A stretch of DNA of 64,000 nucleotides, from NCBI GenBank assembly GCA_046563655.1, contig CM102287.1, positions 3,162,001-3,226,000 of the forward strand. Direction: 5' to 3'. This document shows, in pieces, positions 31,401 to 42,122 of this stretch. A model generated the notes under the pieces. It searched no databases. It was not told where the DNA came from and worked only from the letters and a program-made list of their open reading frames with translations. Position numbers and translations under genes: made by a program. The stretch is from Yuukianura sp. NJ FZ-2021. Lineage: Eukaryota. Within the stretch, counting starts at the first letter, position 1. Every line of letters begins with the position of its first letter.

Positions 31401-34400
31401 GAATAAACGACGTTCTTAAAACGTTTCTCGTGTCTAAATCTAAGTCTGCCTTGACAGGTCGTAAACATCCAGAAAAAAAACCACCCAGGAATCCTGAATA
31501 TACTGGTCCAGCATTTCCTGAATATACTGGCCTAGCATTTCCTGAATATACTGACCCAGCATTTCCTGGATATACTGCTCCAGCATTCCTGGATCAGTCA
31601 AGCATGAATCCCTCTGGAGCCCGAAAACCCAATAACAACAACTTTCTCTTCCAGAAAATTCTAATTAGCGACAACTTTTTGACAACAAGCTGATCCAAGG
31701 TCACATGACAAAAGATGACCTTTGACCTTTGCGCCGTGACCTTTGACCTTGTGACCTCTTACGGGAATGATTAGTAGAGTAGCGGTGGGTAGAAGTCCAA
31801 GATCTCTAAGCGAGTTGCCATAATCTTCCGGAGTGAAGGCTCGTCGTGGAAAGGCAATAGAAAGTGTAAATCCCCTGAAAAACCAAGAAACAAATTTTAA
31901 AAACCAAAAACACACACACCAAATTTTAACAACAAACATCAAACAAAAATTCGCTTCAAAACTTTCTCTTTTAGCTACAGTGAAATCAATTTGAACTCAT
32001 TTACACCAGAAACTAGAAAATTCGAAATTTCCAAAACTGTAAAAACCGCTTGTTAGTGACCTTTGACCTTTGTAAATAAACAACTCAAGATCAGTTTATC
32101 ATTTTACTTTCCGGAAAGCGCCAAAGCGTTTACTTTCCTCCTTCAACTGTAATTCTAAAAAAACATCCCCCAGGAGTAAATTTTTTTTCAAAAATCTAAA
32201 AAACGCGTCCAAAAAAAAGTAAACGCGTTCTTCCGCTTCCTGGACTCGCAATTTATCTTTTTCGGTTTCTTTCCTCCCCACTTTTTAAAAGTTGCTCTGC
32301 CTCTACACTTCAAAACTGTAACTCTGCAGCCCTTAAAAAAGGAATACTTTCCAGTTCTGCTGTTCTCACAAAGTTAGGCTAACCTAACGAAAACGAAGGA
32401 AAAGAGCAATTTCCTCCAAAGATTAAAGTCATCGGAGTACTAAAAATCGGATTTTCGTAGATTTGAAGTTGTAGAGCACACTAGAACTAAAAAGTAGACT
32501 TCAAACGGAAGTGTCCTATTTCTCTTTGGTCATATTTCTTGGACCGGGAGTCTTAGATGTCAAGAAGTCATGTCCTCAAGGCCCAATTAACTTTCCACTT
32601 TCTTTCTCCTACCCAAAACCTAACTCTAACCTAATACTAGGCTAACCCTAACCAAAAAGGACTAAAAAGGCCTAAAGTCGTTTGTTTTTCTAGCACCACG
32701 GTGAAACAAAAACGCTTTTTAGCAAGAAAAATTGCTGCGTCTTTTCTAAAAATGGGTCACACTTTTCGGCAGAACAGCAGAAACTGTGTGACTTTGGGCC
32801 TGTAGCTTCCTAAACCATAAATTAAACCTGAAATCATTACGTTGTCGCTACTTTGTTACACTAATCCAATTAAATCTGCGAACAAGCAGAGCAGAAGACA
32901 CATTTTTTGTAACTTTGTCTTCTGTCTCAGCATCTCTTGCTTACTAAACACTTTGACACTCCAATTGAATTAAAGCGTTCGCGTCGCGATGCTGGATGCT
33001 GTCAGCACATCGCTTTCAGAACAAGACTAAGCTTGTCACTTCAAAAACACTTTGAAGTTTAGTAGCAGGGAGGTTCATTTCGTTAGAAATTTGAACCTTG
33101 CCGCTACTTCAACCTCAATCGAATTAATGTTAATTAATTAATTAATTGAGGCTGATGTGGCATTTTTTTTTGTTTTCAAAAAGAAAAGACAACTTACTTT
33201 CGAGGAATTTCGATATTTGCGGTGAGGTATTCACGAACATCGTGCAGAGTTTGTTGAGGCTCAAAAGCATGTGAATGGGAAGAGCCATCAGGAAGTCGGA
33301 ATTGGAGTCGAGCCAATCCAGTGTAGTTGGAAGCAGCGGGGTCACGACCGGAAGTAACTTTTGGAGCAGGAGGAGTTTGCGCAGGAGTTTCGGCTGCTAG
33401 AGCTGCTTGGGCACGAGCTTCACGGTCGATTCGATCTTGAGCAATTTGGTCTTTGACGCGTTGACGTAAAGCGGCTTCCTCTTGCTTGTCTTTACGACGT
33501 TCCTCTGCTAATCGTTTCGTTTCTTGTTCCATTTGCCAGCGTTTGAGTTCTGCAACTTTCCTGCCCGCTTCGCGTCTCTCGGTTTCACGACGTCTGGCTT
33601 CCTGAAAAAAAAACGAAAAAATCTTATGAACGAAGTTCAAATTTAAGGTTTTTCAAAAAAAAAAAATCAAAATTTTGAAATTCAAAATGTTGGCCCTTAC
33701 AGCATCTTCTTCTGCCTTCTTCTGAGCCTGTTTCGCTGCAGCGAGTTGCTTAGCTCGTTCGATTTTGTCTTGTAAAGTTGGTTCTGTCGCTGAGGTTTCA
33801 CTTGAAACTGGTTGCGCATCTGACGAAGAAGGTTCTGGATTAACGATATGCGATGCAGTTGAAGGAGACTGCGGAGCAGGAGTGGCTGAAACTGATGTGG
33901 AAGGAGCTTGAGATGTACCGGTTGAGGTCAATCCGAAAGCTTCACGATGCCGTTGCAGAGCAGTATCGAACCTTGACTTGAGTGTAGCAGGATCAACGTA
34001 GCCTGAAATGACTTGGACAGCGACACCGCCAGTGGTGATACAGTAAATGGATGGAGACGAAACGTTTGAATCTGTGAAAACAAAACCAGCTACTCAGCAA
34101 ATTTGACTTTAAAAAAGCCTTTGAACAACAATGGCTAAAAAAATCTTACAAATGGCTCCGAACTGTGCAAATTCTTCACTGTTTGAATCAATACGAATGG
34201 AAATGACCCCTTCTTTCTCAATCAACTGTTGGATATCACTGGATTCCAAAGAGGTGAGTAATCCTGTAGAATCAGCATCTTCACCTGTAAAACCAACCAA
34301 TATTGAGTAACTGTATGTCAAGCGTTCCTTTCCAGAATGTTGTTACTCCGCGCACACATAAAGAAGATTCTTACCAAAAATGGCGACGCAAAAGAGCACT

Positions 34401-34456
34401 TTCTTTGCCTGTGCATGGGCAACTGCTTCTGGGATAGTACCAGTGTACCACTTCAT
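28448..34456 (-). CDS. UBXN4: UBX domain-containing protein 4 (erasin)
   Basis: N-terminus MKWYTGTIPEAVAHAQAKK; coiled coil; UBX (ARLQFRLPDGSS...AFPRRAFT...SLRDLGLLPTATL); hydrophobic hairpin (29974-29697); diagnostic C-terminus EGNIHRF...TYNGNSTQQM* (28550-28448). Confidence 0.95.
31493..31593. repeat. 24-bp tandem repeat, about 4 copies, in a UBXN4 intron
   Basis: Degenerate copies of cctgaatatactggtccagcattt. Confidence 0.85.
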
Positions 34457-35862
34457 CTTTGACCTGACCTTTGACCTTCCAAGTAAAAATACAAGTAATT
34501 AGGTTTACAATAAGTTGCAGCTCTTCTTGCTCCTCCAAAGTAAGCCCGATGTTCAAAATTTTTGAGTCAAAGATACCTATAAACGTTTAGTTACGATGTA
34601 TTACGTAAGCTTACGCCGTAAGCCTTACGGTGCAAGTTGAATATTAATCTTTGATAATTGTGAATTTGAAATTGCGAATTTGAACAGCCGAATTTTACAA
34701 TTTGCGAAAAATACACGTCAAATAAGAAACGAATTTGAACACAAGAATTTTTGAAAAATTGAGATCAGCTGATTTTCTACTCAACTGTCAACTCCCTACG
34801 CCCGCCTCCCGCCCTATGCTATGATTTGTGCTTAAATAAAAGTTAAACCATTTACCCCTTACTTCATCAATTACATGAATCAACGGATCCCATTGATCAC
34901 CAATTCCATCTTCTTATAATAGGTCAAAGGTCATGACATTGGAGTGACTAAATGACAGATACCTATGACCTAAGTCAGATTTTCCTGCGTTTTTCAAAAA
35001 TTTCTATTTTACAAAATATTTCTTAGCGCGGTTTTATGTTTAACACAGCTTGTCATATTTTTTTTGTCTTACTCTTACAAGGGGAAGCTGTGATAAAAAT
35101 TGGCAAGTTTATGTATCCCTTCAGTTGCCCGCCTCGGCGCTTTTGTGTTTTTGTTTCACGAAAAAAAGCAGGAAAGAGTCAGTCGGTCGTTGAGGAGCAG
35201 CGTTTCACGCTGTTGGTTTGTTAATCGATTAATTGGAAGATTGCATTGTGCTGAAACGGTAATCAAAACATAGGATATTGGATTGAATAGATTTGTCTTT
35301 GAGTGAGACTGACACAACTGCTTGTGCTTGTACACTGAGAAACCGCGAGGAAGATCCCGGCTAAAGCTTTTCGGTGTCGTCGTGTCGACGGCCCAACGGT
35401 GACCTGACCTTTGCCATTCTAATTGCATAGTAATTGGAACATAGGTAAGCCCGGAGTCTTCAGTTACCTAGCTATAATAAAAGCAATCTAAAGTTTTGGT
35501 GTGTGAGGGCTTACTTTGCATGCTTAATGTGTTTAGAATTGGCATGGTTGACATGAGGACATGACATGACAGTGTCAATTGGACACGTCGCGTAGTCAAG
35601 GCTTGGAATGGAGGGAAGGGCTTTCTCGCTGTCGCTGCTGTGTTAGCGCTAGCGGGTTGTCTGGGTCATTTGTTGACGCGTTGAGCGTTGACCCACGTCA
35701 ATTGCAAATGCTTCCGATACTAATTCTAGACTTGAAGTCTTTCGTTCTTTCTCATTTGCATGGTTATTTGGCTCTTTTCAACTGAAATGACGACTGATTT
35801 TAATGAAATTGTTATGCGCGATTACCTAACTCCGCCTGCCTCCTTTGTTAATTTGGTGTCCT

Positions 35863-36271
35863 CGAAGCAGACCAATTCCTAAACACAGTCAATTCGTAAG
35901 CATGCACAATTCGTAAGCAGAAAATTCGTAAGCATGGCAAATTCGTAAGCACGGTTAATTCGTAAGCATTCTCCTTTCGTAAGCAAATCTTTCCGTATGG
36001 TTGTGTTTCCGTTCTGTAAGGTTAGGTTTTTAAGCTTTTAATTGAATTTAGATTATGTTGCGTTAGGCTAAATTAGGTTAGGTTATTTTTTCTTCAAAAT
36101 TTTGAAATTGAAATAGGTTTTACGAGGCTTACGAAAGCACTGCTTACGAATTGGGCTGCTTACGAATTGACCATGCTTACGTATTGACCGTGCTTACGAA
36201 TTGTCGGCTTACGAAATTGAGCTTACGAATTGACTGTTTATGAATTTGAGCTTACGAATTGACCTGGAACC
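35863..36271. mobile_element. Foldback-type MITE in the 5' region of Top2
   Basis: Left arm has repeated AATTCGTAAGC, right arm has repeated GCTTACGAATT. Flanked by the direct repeat ggtgtcct (35855-35862 and 36272-36279). Confidence 0.8.
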
Positions 36272-36657
36272 GGTGTCCTAATGTTTTGTTGTACGGGAAT
36301 TGACATTTGGTAGACGGCGTTATGCGAAATTGGAAAAATTACGCAGATTTTTACTTCCTTTTTTGCATTTATTTTGAGATTTTAGCATAACTTCTGCGGT
36401 GCTGCTGTCAGCCGGCCTCAGGCTGCTGTGTGCTACAACAAGCAAGCGCCTAGTTCAGCTCTCGGCTGCTCCTTTTCCCGTTCTTAAGGCTACAAAGTCA
36501 GCTTCTGCAGCAGCTCCGAACAAATTGAAGGTTCAAAAATTCCTAATTAACTGCGCGATAATCTTACCCGTACATTAGACTACGCTGCTTTATTCTTTTG
36601 AGTTTTTCAATTGATTGAATCGTTTCATTTTTGTTTTGACAGGATTGTTGGTCCAAG

Positions 36658-39600
36658 ATGAGTACGAAAGATCCGGTTCCAATGGACGTAACCAACGACG
36701 TGCAGGCTGCCAGTAAAAAGAAAAAACCAACTGCGATTGAAGAGATTTACCAAAAGAAGTCTCAATTGGAACACATTCTTTTGCGTCCCGATACATACAT
36801 TGGTAAGTAAACACAATTCAGCAGTGTTAGTTTAACTTTCCTAAGAATTGACAAATACAAACTGTTGGTATGATTTTCACACTTGAATCTTTGGTTTTCG
36901 TTTCATAGGCTCCGTGGAACCGATTACAGAGAAGATGTGGGTTTTTGAGGATGGGAAAATGGTGCACAAGACGATCACATACGTCCCTGGACTCTACAAA
37001 ATATTTGACGAAATCTTGGTCAACGCTGCAGACAACAAGCAACGTGACAAGAACATGGACACGATCAAGATTGACATTGATCAGTAAGCCTTTCTCTCGT
37101 CAATTATCAGTATATATTCTGATCAATTATCAGAATATTCTGATCAATGGTCAGAATCTGAATCTGATGATCATTAGTCCTTGACTAATCTGTTCTTTTT
37201 GCGTTTTGAAACAGAGAGAGCAATACAATTGCAGTCTACAACAACGGCCAAGGGATTCCGATTGTGGAGCACAAGGACGAGAAGATGATGGTTCCCACTC
37301 TGATTTTTGGTCACCTCCTGACATCGTCGAACTTCAATGACGACGAGAAGAAAGTCACTGGTGGACGAAACGGTTACGGAGCCAAACTCTGCAATGTCTT
37401 CAGCACCAAGTTTACAGTGGAAACGGGGAATAGGAAGGAAGGAAAAGCCTTCAAACAGGTAAACATGCTCCAAAAAAAGTTCAAAATTAAAACGATTTCT
37501 ATGAAACATGTTCGTTTTGTTTCGTTTCCAGACGTGGGAAAACAACATGTCAAAGGCCCATCCACACAAAATTACTGACCGAATTGGTGACGACTTTACG
37601 AGAGTGACATTTCAACCAGATCTCAAGAAATTCAATATGCAGACGCTGGAGAACGACGTTGTGGCTTTGTTCCAGCGACGGGCTTATGACGTCGCCGGAA
37701 CGTCTGCAGGCGTCAAAGTTTTTCTCAATGGCAAACGATTACCGGTAAGACACTCAAGTGGAGCCTTGTTTCAACTTTTAACGTTGTTTTAACACTAAGT
37801 TTTACCTTTTAATTTTAACTTTTCAGGTGAAAAGCTTCAAGGATTATGTTGATCTGTTCGTGAAGGATCTTGTAGACCAAGCCGACAATCCAGTGAAGTG
37901 CGTTTGGGAAAAATGTAACCCACGATGGGAAATTGCCGTTTGTCCTTCTGAGGACAACTTTCAACAAATCTCATTTGTCAACAGTATTGCCACTACTAAG
38001 GTAAGGGGGTACTTCAAGTTCAAAATTTTATGAAATTTTGAAAATTTTGAGTTTTTTCATGTTTTTTTTTTGTTTCAAATTGTAGGGAGGTCGACATGTA
38101 GACTACATTGCTGACATGGTAGGGAAACAGTTGGTTGACGGTGTCATGAAAAAGAACAAAGGCGGAATTGCTGTCAAACCAGCCCAGATTCGGAATCATA
38201 TGTGGGTGTTTGTCAACTGCTTGATTGAAAATCCAACATTCGACTCTCAGACAAAGGAGACCATGACGCTTCAAGCGCGGCAGTTTGGGTAAGATTCAAA
38301 ATTCTGATGCTGGCAACCAATAATTCTGATGCTGCCGGTGCCAATGAATGCTGATGCTAACAATATCTTTTTTTTATCGCTAGATCTAAATGTGAACCGT
38401 CGGCTAAATTCTACGCCAGTGTGCAAAAATGCGGGATCGTTGAGAGCGTCGTGTCTTGGGCCAAGTTCAAGCAAGACCAAATCAAGGACAAGGCTGGTGG
38501 GAAGAAGACGAACAAGATCAAAGGAATTCCGAAACTGGAGGACGCTAACGACGCTGGAACGAAGAATTCTATGGCCTGTACGCTCGTGTTGACTGAGGGA
38601 GATTCAGCCAAATCGCTGGCAGTGGCTGGACTCGGGGTTATTGGCAGAGATAAGTATGGCGTGTTTCCGCTTCGTGGAAAACTTTTGAACGTTCGGGAAG
38701 CTTCTCATAAGCAGGTAGAGAACCAAAAAATATGAAACGACAACCGACTTTTTTAAAAATTTTCTTTTGTTTTCGAATTCTGACAATGTTCGTTTTTTTT
38801 TAGATTGTGGAGAATGCCGAAATCAATGCAATGGTGAAGATCCTGGGATTGAAGTATAAGCAAAAGTATGATTCAGTCGATGAGATGAAATCGCTGCGTT
38901 ATGGCAAGTTGATGATCATGACTGATCAGGATCACGACGGTTCTCACATCAAAGGTCTCATCATCAACTTCATTCACCACAATTGGCCAAGTCTCCTCAA
39001 GAGAAACTTCATTGAAGAGTTCATTACTCCAATTGTCAAAGTTACCAAAGGAAACGAAGTCCTTTCGTTCTTCTCAATGCCAGAACTGGACGACTGGAAG
39101 TCAAATACTCACAACTGGAAAACTTATAGGATCAAGTACTATAAGGGTCTGGGTACTTCAACTTCAGCAGAAGCCAAAGAGTACTTCAAAAATATTGAAC
39201 GACATCGAATCAAGTTTCGATACGCTGGAACCACCGATGACGATACCCTGACAATGGCTTTTAGTAAGAAGTGTGTTGAACAACGCAAGGATTGGCTGAC
39301 GAATTGGATGGACAGTTGCAAACGACGCAAGGAGTTGGGCTTGTCCCAGGAAATCATCTATGGACAAGATGTCCGGTCCATCACTTACTCCGAATTTGTC
39401 AACAAGGAGCTCGTCTTGTTCTCAAACTTAGACAATGAGAGATCAATTCCTTGTATCGTCGATGGATTCAAACCAGGTCAACGCAAAGTCCTGTTTACTT
39501 GTTTCAAGCGAAATGACAAGCGGGAGATCAAAGTGGCTCAACTGGCTGGATCAGTTGCTGAACACTCGGCTTATCACCATGGTGAAGCGTCACTCATGTC

Positions 39601-42122
39601 CACGATTATCAATTTGGCCCAGAACTATGTCGGAAGCAACAATATCAACCTACTGGAACCCAATGGTCAGTTTGGCACGAGACTCCAAGGGGGCAAGGAT
39701 GCTGCATCACCTCGTTATATTTTTACGCTCCTTAGTCCCATGGCTCGAATCATTTTCAATCCACTGGACTCTCCACTATTACGTAACTTGTATGACGATA
39801 ATCAGCGGATTGAGCCGGAGTGGTACTGTCCGATCATTCCAATGGTCCTGGTCAACGGAGCCGATGGAATCGGTACTGGCTGGATGACGAGAGTTCCGAA
39901 CTTCAATCCGAGAGAGATTGTGGCCAATCTCCGCAAAATGATCATGGGAGAGGAACCGGAGCACATGAAACCATGGTACAAGAATTACAGAGGTAAGTTT
40001 CCCGCCAAAACTTCCAAAATTTATTTTTAAACGCAAAACTGTTAGTATTTGTTTTAACTTCTTTTTTTTAATTTCTAATGTTTTTTTTTTTAAACTAGGT
40101 GAAATTGTTGAACTATCTCCGCAGAAGTACGCCATCTACGGTGAAGTTTCAATGTTGGACGAGACAACTCTAGAAATTACAGAACTCCCCATTGGAACCT
40201 GGACACAGCACTACAAGGAAAGTGTAATTGAAGTACTTGCCAATGGCAATGAGAAGGTCACTGCAGTTGTGAACAGCTACAAAGAGTACAATACTGATAC
40301 GACAGTTCGGTTCGTCCTCAGCGTCAAACCGGAGACGATGAAAGCTTGGGAAAAAGAAGGATTTCACAAGGCACTCAAAATCCAATCCACGACAAATCTC
40401 ACTTCCATGGTTCTGTTTGACAAAAACGGATGCTTGAGGAAGTACGAGACTCCATTGGACATCCTCAAGGAATTCTTTGAACTGCGCATGAGTCTGTACG
40501 TGAAGAGACGAGAATACTTGATTGGACTGCTGTCTGCCGAAGCACTGAAACTGAGCAACCAAGCTCGATTTATCCTGGAAAAGTGTGATGGAGACCTCGT
40601 CGTTGAGAATAAAAAGAAGAAGCAACTTATTGAGGAACTGATTGCTCGAAAATACGATTCGGATCCAGTCAAAGCATGGCAGAGTCGTCAGAAATCGCTG
40701 CAAGATCAAGAGCGAGAAGCCGAAGCGCGCCAAATCGAAGCCGAGGAAGAAGGAGCAGAAGCCGAAGAAGAGGCAGAAGAGGGGAGAGATTTTGACTATT
40801 TGCTGCAGTTGCGAATTTTGAATTTGACTTTGGAGAAGAAAGAGGCTTTGCTAAAAGAACGGGATAACAAAAAACAGGAACTGGAGATCATCAAGGCCAA
40901 AACTCCCGCAGATTTGTACAATGACGATCTGGATGTGTTTATGACCACGCTGGACAAGGTGGAGCAAGCTGAGATGGAGGAGGAGCTTAAGGGCAACAAA
41001 AAAGCGAAGTATGAGAAAATCGCTGCCGCTGCAGACAAGAAGAAGGGAGGTGTGAAGGGCAGAGGATCGGACAAGCGATTGAGCATTGCGCATGTGGATA
41101 CTTTGCCATCTTCTGGAGCTGAACGAATTGAGCCAATCGTGGATGAGCTGATGAAGAAAGAGGAAGCGAAGAAGGTCAAGGGAGAGAAGAAGCCGAGAGT
41201 GAAGAAAGAGAAGAAGGAAGACATGGACGAATTTGATCTCATGGCAGATGACAAGGACTCACTTTTTGACAAAATTTTGAGTTCGGCTGAAGGCAAGAAA
41301 GTCCCGATGAAGAAAGTCAGAGCCAAGAAAAACGGCGGAAAAGACGGACTGAAGCAAACTACGCTCAGTTTTACCAAGAGAGAGAAGAAATCTTCGTCGT
41401 TGTCCCCAAAGAAGAAGGCGCCCAAGAAGGACAAGGAGTTTGACTCAACCGGGAGTGAAGATGAAGAGAGTTCGGTCAACTTCGGCAGCAGCGATGAAGA
41501 AAGTTTTGTAGCCCCGAAGAAGAAGAATCCTGAAGTAATCGCTGCTAAACCGAAGAAAAATATTTTGTCCTCAGACGAAGAAGAAGACGTGAAACCGTCA
41601 ACGAACTTCGGGGCTGAAGCGCTCAAGAAAATTTTCCCGGGAGCCGCTAAAGCTAAACTGACGCTGCCAAGGAAAAAAGCGCCACCTAAAACGAAAGATG
41701 CTTTTTCGCTTGATTCGGATTCCGAATCCGGTTCGGGCAGCGATTCGGATGCTGGAGGTGGCAAGAAAGGCAAGAAGAAGACTGCAAGCAAAGCACCGCC
41801 AGCGAAAAAAGGACCTCCGCCGCGCAAGGCAGCAACGATTGCAGCCGTGAAGCAACTGGTGACGCTGGATTCGGACTCGGACGATGAGGATTTCAAGACC
41901 AAGGTCAACGGAGTGTCAAACAACAAGGACTCAAGGTCACCATCACCCACGCCAGTGAAGAAGGGAGCCACGAAGAGACCTACCGGTTCGCGTGCCGGTC
42001 CGGCCAAGAAGACGTACCAGATCAATTCAGACTCGGACGATTCGGAAAATGGATTCAAAGTGCCGGATGATTCGTCTGAGGATGAGTATAAACCGTCTCC
42101 GTCGAAACGACGCAAAGTCTAA
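36658..42122 (+). CDS. Top2: DNA topoisomerase II
   Basis: IYQKKSQLEHILLRPDTYIG, LYKIFDEILVNAADN, GGRNGYGAK, TEGDSA, PLRGK, IMTDQDHDGSHIKG, YYKGLGTS, ASPRYIFT (catalytic Tyr) and a long K/D/S-rich C-terminal domain. First AUG at 36658. Confidence 0.98.

Follow-up and report, generated by a model that had tools for sequence, protein, structure and literature searches.

A Top2 gene and a short GC-rich segment upstream of it, possibly encoding a mitochondrial presequence, were examined in a stretch of DNA from Yuukianura sp. NJ FZ-2021 (assembly GCA_046563655.1, contig CM102287.1, positions 3,162,001 to 3,226,000; 64,000 nucleotides [nt], referred to here as the window and numbered from its first letter). 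The Top2 coding region (36658..42122, forward strand), modeled from tblastn matches and frame-checked splice sites, contained 9 exons encoding 1,565 amino acids (aa), with introns of 73 to 131 nt. All 8 of its splice donors started with GTA and 7 of the 8 with GTAA, and its AUG at 36658 had A at −3. The predicted product matched the Pfam families DNA_topoisoIV (PF00521; 253 and 117 bits), TOPRIM_C (PF16898; 161 bits), and Toprim (PF01751; 23.7 bits against a cutoff of 23.1), and HATPase_c scored 22.8 bits on one 81-aa exon, under its cutoff of 26.4. Collembolan Top2 proteins were the best named relatives (64 to 66% identity across approximately 1,200 to 1,300 aa), with decapod proteins marginally under them (62 to 64%), and the top database match to the most conserved exon was 80% identical. 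By its Toprim, TOPRIM_C, and breakage-reunion (DNA_topoisoIV) domains, its GHKL ATPase, and its full-length collinearity with known Top2, the gene is a pancrustacean eukaryotic type IIA DNA topoisomerase. No database protein shared the species-specific N terminus encoded by the AUG exon (peptide P0002).

An earlier note on this DNA had proposed that a GC-richer, stop-free exon upstream of the Top2 AUG, joined to it in frame as DCWSK and free of acidic residues over about 50 aa, encodes the presequence of a mitochondrial Top2 isoform, and this description of the segment agreed with what was found. Its GC content was 0.54, compared to 0.38 over the preceding 200 nt and 0.32 over the following 112 nt, with a sharp step at both proposed borders (ttttag/CATAAC at 36386 and TTGAAG/gttcaa after 36530). 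Only one frame of the 145-nt segment was stop-free (P0001, 48 aa); its translation was acid-free, basic, and rich in Leu, Ser, and Ala, and the stretch of 49 residues running from the junction Arg through NKLK contained 8 Arg or Lys and no Asp or Glu. The proposed joins kept this frame open into Top2. Codon-usage log-odds, trained on the Top2 coding sequence versus local noncoding sequence and computed in 48-codon windows, were +9.3 bits in the frame that joins the AUG, compared to −4.0 and −27.8 bits in the other two, and none of 163 noncoding windows reached +9.3 bits.

ATG was absent in every frame from the candidate leader exon 1, the candidate coding exon, and the 15 nt preceding the Top2 AUG (Table 1), so that the 239-nt model leader contained none, compared to 3.7 expected. 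The 335 nt immediately before the AUG (36323 to 36657) likewise contained no ATG in any frame (5.3 expected; Poisson probability, 0.005), and ATG-free runs of this length preceded 2.1% and 3.3% of window positions on the two strands. Another 408 nt (35112 to 35519; 7.9 ATG expected) were likewise ATG-free, beginning at TCAGTT, an initiator (Inr)-like motif; the collembolan-type Top2 transcript L009 also starts with TCAGTTCAGTT. Candidate intron 1, lying between these two ATG-free runs, contained 20 ATG, compared to 22.3 expected. The acceptor at 36643, with a T-rich tract and CAG, was the strongest of the region. For exon 1, another and stronger donor was present after 35444 (TAG/GTAAGC), and the segment had a second in-frame donor after 36569 (CCC/GTACAT) that would leave a 73-nt intron and add 13 codons. 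Retention of 36531 to 36642 would close the frame at a TAG at 36576. The GC step, the ATG-free stretch, and the frame-specific codon usage support the segment acting like a piece of the Top2 5′ leader.

It is improbable that the segment is no exon, with exon 1 joined directly to 36643 or transcription starting near the AUG and the stretch itself being intronic or promoter sequence. Such an arrangement would suit the poor quality of both candidate donors of the segment, its acceptor tract of 65% pyrimidine (hand count), which is under the 0.70 filter, and an initiator-like TCATTT seen by eye at approximately 36624. A 335-nt ATG-free run would, however, be hard to explain with only 15 nt of it in the mRNA, and the GC step is sharp at both proposed borders. 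The strong acceptor at 36643 points to an upstream exon, and no Rfam family (best E value, 0.81) or unusual RNA fold (z = −0.53) was found that would indicate a different function of the segment.

The end of candidate exon 1 reads ATT GTG CTG AAA CG/gtaatc, and the GTG at 35248 to 35250 had A at −3 and C at +4. This GTG was the start favored in the earlier note, which had also described the donor after 35258, an in-frame stop shortly upstream, and the lack of any in-frame AUG, all of which were recovered (the stop is the TAA at 35230 to 35232). Every GT donor of the right phase between 33000 and 36385 was searched for an AUG exon, and no in-frame AUG was reachable from any candidate upstream exon. 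Donors preceded by an ATG had poor sites or sat antisense within the neighboring gene, and an AUG-bearing upstream exon was therefore rejected; the five most plausible donors each had an in-frame stop 3 to 28 codons upstream with no ATG between. Because no credible donor offers an AUG route, the extension, if made, must begin at a near-cognate codon. GUG 35248 is one candidate, and TTG 35233, CTG 35251, TTG 35434 (with the donor at 35444), and GTG 36399 or CTG 36402 inside the segment appear equally possible. The last two had G at −3 and C at +4, and none among GTG 35248, GTG 36399, and CTG 36402 had the optimal G at +4.

N-terminal extensions were sought on Top2 of other species, with unnamed sequences placed in lineages solely by BLAST to named ones. 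Among 120 Top2 matches inspected by eye, 9 had an AUG-started, basic, acid-poor extension of 20 to 41 aa that ran in frame straight into the canonical Met (Table 1), and for both Apis dorsata and Bombus bifarius RefSeq has Top2 models with and without the extension. Short ORF (open reading frame) fragments (P0190, P0219, P0230, P0239, P0198, and P0179 of the nematode Romanomermis), some of which may be read-through of genomic sequence, provided additional AUG-started candidates. In P0179 (Romanomermis culicivorax), an AUG-initiated, acid-poor, Arg-rich stretch of approximately 47 aa lay ahead of an internal Met; with this nematode fragment, the pattern may extend beyond arthropods. Aphid-type Top2 sequences (L001:36-278 and the N termini of P0198 and P0123) had similar residues before the Met, ending in TVAG, TVAS, or IVAG, and L001 had 81 open codons upstream without an AUG.

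A metagenome scan yielded 16 loci, of which 10 were Top2 transcript contigs with a 5′ end. The frame of the canonical AUG was open for at least 55 codons upstream in 5 of these 10 transcripts (L001, L002, L004, L006, and L007), compared to 2 of 20 for the other two frames. An upstream AUG was present in L004 and absent from the other four. Three of the AUG-less transcripts (L002, L006, and L007) and a partial protein (P0027), all copepod-type, were approximately 70 to 77% identical to Tigriopus Top2; all four extensions shared an RSLS motif, which fits the R-3 pattern of mitochondrial processing peptidase (MPP). In the three transcripts, similarity began at a putative YTG-GCY start (CTG 129 in L002, TTG 118 in L006, and CTG 51 in L007, the last with A at −3 and G at +4), with in-frame stops 4 to 6 codons further upstream in L002 and L006. 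The whole leaders of L002, L006, and L007 (275, 270, and 182 nt) contained no ATG, compared to 4.4, 4.2, and 2.8 expected, and 30 of 53 residues were identical between the L002 and L006 extensions. This AUG-less copepod extension looks like a conserved, near-cognate-initiated presequence of its own. Separately, copepod-type transcripts fell into two groups, one with a long open extension and approximately 70% identity to Tigriopus Top2 (L002, L004, L006, and L007) and one with a stop 10 to 12 codons upstream and approximately 61 to 62% identity (L003 and L005), which may represent two paralogues or two lineages.

The window extension (57 aa) contained 10 Arg or Lys and a single Asp or Glu, with a net charge of +9 and 53% Ala, Arg, Leu, and Ser combined. 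Across the 13 extensions compared, that of the window included, there were 0 to 4 Asp or Glu each and net charges of +4 to +9, whereas the canonical N termini of 123 full-length Top2 proteins averaged 7.4 Asp or Glu per 50 aa. When the 13 extensions were aligned, no convincing homology emerged between lineages. A profile search aimed at the copepod extensions returned Top2 cores only, the profile having spanned 425 positions of a full-length member, and gave no information on the extensions themselves. In composition, the window extension fits a mitochondrial matrix presequence, being positive, almost acid-free, and rich in Arg, Lys, Leu, Ser, and Ala. That it is translated and serves instead as another sorting signal, a membrane anchor, or a regulatory part acting on Top2 or its translation is very improbable. 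A hydrophobic run of approximately 18 residues with one Arg near its N terminus and the lack of a clear MPP motif would be compatible with such a role, but a net charge of +9 with one acidic residue in 57 is a classical presequence makeup, an endoplasmic reticulum or secretory destination would be senseless for a DNA topoisomerase, and the RSLS of the copepod counterparts fits the R-3 MPP pattern.

A non-AUG-initiated mitochondrial isoform of Top2 in this animal is plausible on the sequence evidence, if somewhat short of an even chance. Two findings raise this reading well above a chance open frame: the segment is leader-like, and presequence-like extensions, some of them AUG-less, recur on pancrustacean Top2. 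Several results weigh against it. At the locus, the donor after 36530 (AAG/GTTCAA) fits 3 of 7 consensus positions, with T at +3, and the in-frame GTACAT donor after 36569 is weak too; the ATG-free run also spans the supposed 112-nt intron, so an unspliced leader ending the frame at TAG 36576 is possible, and GUG 35248 is just one among several possible starts. A codon score as low as +9.3 bits is found in just 2.6% of true coding windows. P0001 had no homologue at E values of ≤10 among longer proteins, and its best ESM Atlas score (0.83, against hypothetical clusters from bacteria) was at noise level. In the extension, no clean R-2, R-3, or R-10 motif, the cleavage motifs of MPP, was seen by eye at a plausible position, and the maximum 11-residue hydrophobic moment was a middling 0.50, compared to 0.43 to 0.82 in other extensions, on an uncalibrated scale. 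Among relatives, the dN/dS ratio (nonsynonymous to synonymous substitution rates) between the L002 and L006 extensions was only 0.59, compared to 0.64 and 0.95 out of frame, which hints at protein-level constraint without proving it. No extension was present in L009, a collembolan-type transcript and the closest relative usable at its 5′ end, whose frame is closed by a stop 7 codons upstream of the AUG, and inspection of the genomic loci L012 (copepod-type) and L013 (thrips-type) revealed no clear upstream presequence exon.

Another explanation would be that the segment is a genuine but purely noncoding exon of the 5′ untranslated region, open and in phase by chance and ATG-free because upstream AUGs are selected against, with only nuclear Top2 being made; this explanation is rather unlikely. 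The L009 leader (L009:1-282) contained no ATG in 282 nt, compared to 6.4 expected, so avoidance of upstream AUGs in Top2 leaders is not specific to extended forms, and the remaining 5 of the 10 metagenomic Top2 transcripts had stops 3 to 22 codons upstream of the AUG. In dinucleotide-preserving shuffles of the exon (n = 20,000), the frame was open in 16.6%, open without Asp or Glu in 6.4%, and open without Asp or Glu and with at least 8 Arg or Lys in 3.2%. GA dinucleotides were scarce in all frames of the exon (2 versus 7 expected), so the absence of Asp and Glu is partly a nucleotide-level property. An open, acid-free, basic frame is thus moderately unusual relative to shuffles, and the splice sites were fitted to the frame post hoc. 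Against a purely noncoding exon stand the 3.2% figure itself, the positive codon score in the AUG-joining frame only, and the similar Top2 extensions in several independent lineages, some of them AUG-started.

For a mitochondrial Top2 isoform, a leader exon beginning near the TCAGTT at 35121 would be spliced to the 145-nt exon (or to its longer form ending at 36569), which would be a genuine part of the Top2 5′ leader, and this in turn to the acceptor at 36643, giving an AUG-less leader that consists of exon 1, the 145-nt exon, and the first 15 nt of the AUG exon. With no AUG in that leader, most scanning ribosomes would arrive at AUG 36658 and produce nuclear Top2, and a minority would initiate at a GUG or CUG, located either near the 3′ end of exon 1 or at 36399 to 36405. 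The upstream-initiated product would carry a basic, acid-free, matrix-targeting presequence of approximately 50 aa and would be imported into mitochondria, the presequence presumably being cleaved off, so that one gene would provide both the nucleus and the mitochondria with a type II topoisomerase. We infer the splicing, initiation, and import of the proposed isoform. The dual nuclear and mitochondrial Top2 put forward in the earlier note thus stands in part: the leader-like segment, the lack of an AUG route, and the analogous extensions speak for it, and the lack of a clear MPP motif in the extension speaks against it. A broader and doubtful possibility is that pancrustacean, perhaps ecdysozoan, Top2 was ancestrally dual-targeted, the nuclear gene yielding a minor mitochondrial form through an upstream in-frame presequence, with an AUG start in some lineages and, in this animal and some copepods, a near-cognate start ahead of a leader kept AUG-free.

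Table 1. Features of the Top2 5′ region in the window and N-terminal extensions on Top2 of other species
Feature	Position or sequence	Strand	Remarks
Candidate leader exon 1, noncoding or partly coding	35112..35258	+	Donor ACG/GTAATC after 35258; predicted boundaries
Initiator-like TCAGTT, possible Top2 transcription start	35121..35126	+	Last upstream ATG (35111) just before; start of 408-nt ATG-free run
TAA followed by near-cognate codons	35230..35258	+	TAA 35230-35232; TTG 35233, ATT 35245, GTG 35248, CTG 35251
Foldback or MITE (miniature inverted-repeat transposable element)-like inverted repeat, in candidate intron 1	35873..36266	.	16- to 17-nt AATTCGTAAGCA-type tandem subrepeats, inverted arms
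In-frame TGA	36375..36377	+	Closes frame if transcript enters exon unspliced from upstream
Candidate coding exon	36386..36530	+	145 nt, phase 2 start, 48 full open codons (P0001)
In-frame GTG CTG CTG cluster	36399..36407	+	Alternative near-cognate starts if exon 1 gives none
Candidate intron	36531..36642	+	112 nt, GC 0.32, weak donor GTTCAA
Start of AUG exon	36643..36657	+	15 nt encoding DCWSK; ttgacag/GATTGT
AUG-started extensions	P0009; P0025; P0030; P0089		Shrimp-type; termite-type; Menopon; Trichogramma isoform X1
AUG-started extensions	P0091, P0095, P0096; P0113, P0114		Bombus; Apis dorsata
Copepod-type AUG-less extensions	L002:111-275; L006:106-270; L007:3-182; P0027 residues 1-45		

Other features surrounded the putative leader. 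ORFs at 33653 to 34586 on the reverse strand were divergent to Top2, with a 5′ end approximately 500 nt from the putative Top2 start, and their arrangement suggests a bidirectional promoter region shared by the two genes; a Pfam search of these ORFs gave no matches. The foldback element lay approximately 120 nt upstream of the candidate exon, with arms of up to 59 nt that were 86% complementary.

The presence of a type II topoisomerase in animal mitochondria is a long-running, unresolved question. To our knowledge, Top3alpha is the only accepted mitochondrial topoisomerase in Drosophila. A full-text search of the open literature, judged by title and start of abstract, found no encoded presequence on an animal Top2, in line with the statement in the earlier note that none is established. 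If real, an encoded arthropod Top2 presequence would open the question to direct tests that leave the essential nuclear enzyme intact, and a large dimeric DNA enzyme would join the proteins dual-targeted by non-AUG initiation. If ancestral dual targeting were true, nonvertebrate animal mitochondria would have a bona fide encoded Top2.

Compared to known systems, the extended arthropod Top2 proteins (Bombus, Apis dorsata, Trichogramma, shrimp-type, termite-type, and Menopon) are like the window candidate in having a basic, acid-poor extension before the canonical Met, but they are AUG-started, are database predictions without a stated function, and showed no alignable similarity to the window exon. 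Dedicated mitochondrial type II topoisomerases are also found in protists, and the Dictyostelium enzyme TopA is one of them, although no paper was found for it. Another is kinetoplastid TOP2mt, which is mentioned in PMC6514783. These protist enzymes are eukaryotic type IIA enzymes imported into mitochondria, as proposed here, but come from separate genes and are not isoforms. In vertebrates, the same enzyme family has been proposed to act on mitochondrial DNA. Top2 activities and immunoblots have been reported from vertebrate mitochondria and TOP2A and TOP2B claimed there, with no targeting signal identified in the portions of the literature considered (PMC6514783), and careful fractionation argues against their presence, neither protein having been found in protease-treated human or mouse mitochondria in the relevant sections of a 2022 study (PMC6514783, PMC9638942). 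The window Top2 differs from these vertebrate enzymes, which lack a targeting sequence, in having a candidate encoded presequence.

Yeast tRNA synthetase genes such as ALA1 and GRS1 produce mitochondrial isoforms from non-AUG-initiated extensions, and surveys of alternative starts in human cells belong to the same field. Mitochondrial isoforms of this kind share with the present candidate a near-cognate start upstream of the main AUG, leaky scanning, and a targeting signal in the extension, as outlined in parts of a 2025 survey of alternative-start mitochondrial isoforms, in the available text of which "TOP2" occurs 0 times (PMC12718117). They differ from the window candidate in having been demonstrated experimentally. 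A close parallel is TOP3A (Top3alpha), a single gene that, in the accounts available for humans and Drosophila, gives nuclear and mitochondrial isoforms through alternative starts (PMC6514783, PMC12718117). In both cases, a topoisomerase for two compartments would come from one gene, and only the form initiated upstream would bear the presequence (PMC6514783, PMC12718117). TOP3A is a type IA enzyme with AUG starts, whereas the Top2 described here is a type IIA enzyme with a putative AUG-less extension on a separate small exon, and it would join TOP3A among the proteins dual-targeted through alternative or non-AUG starts.

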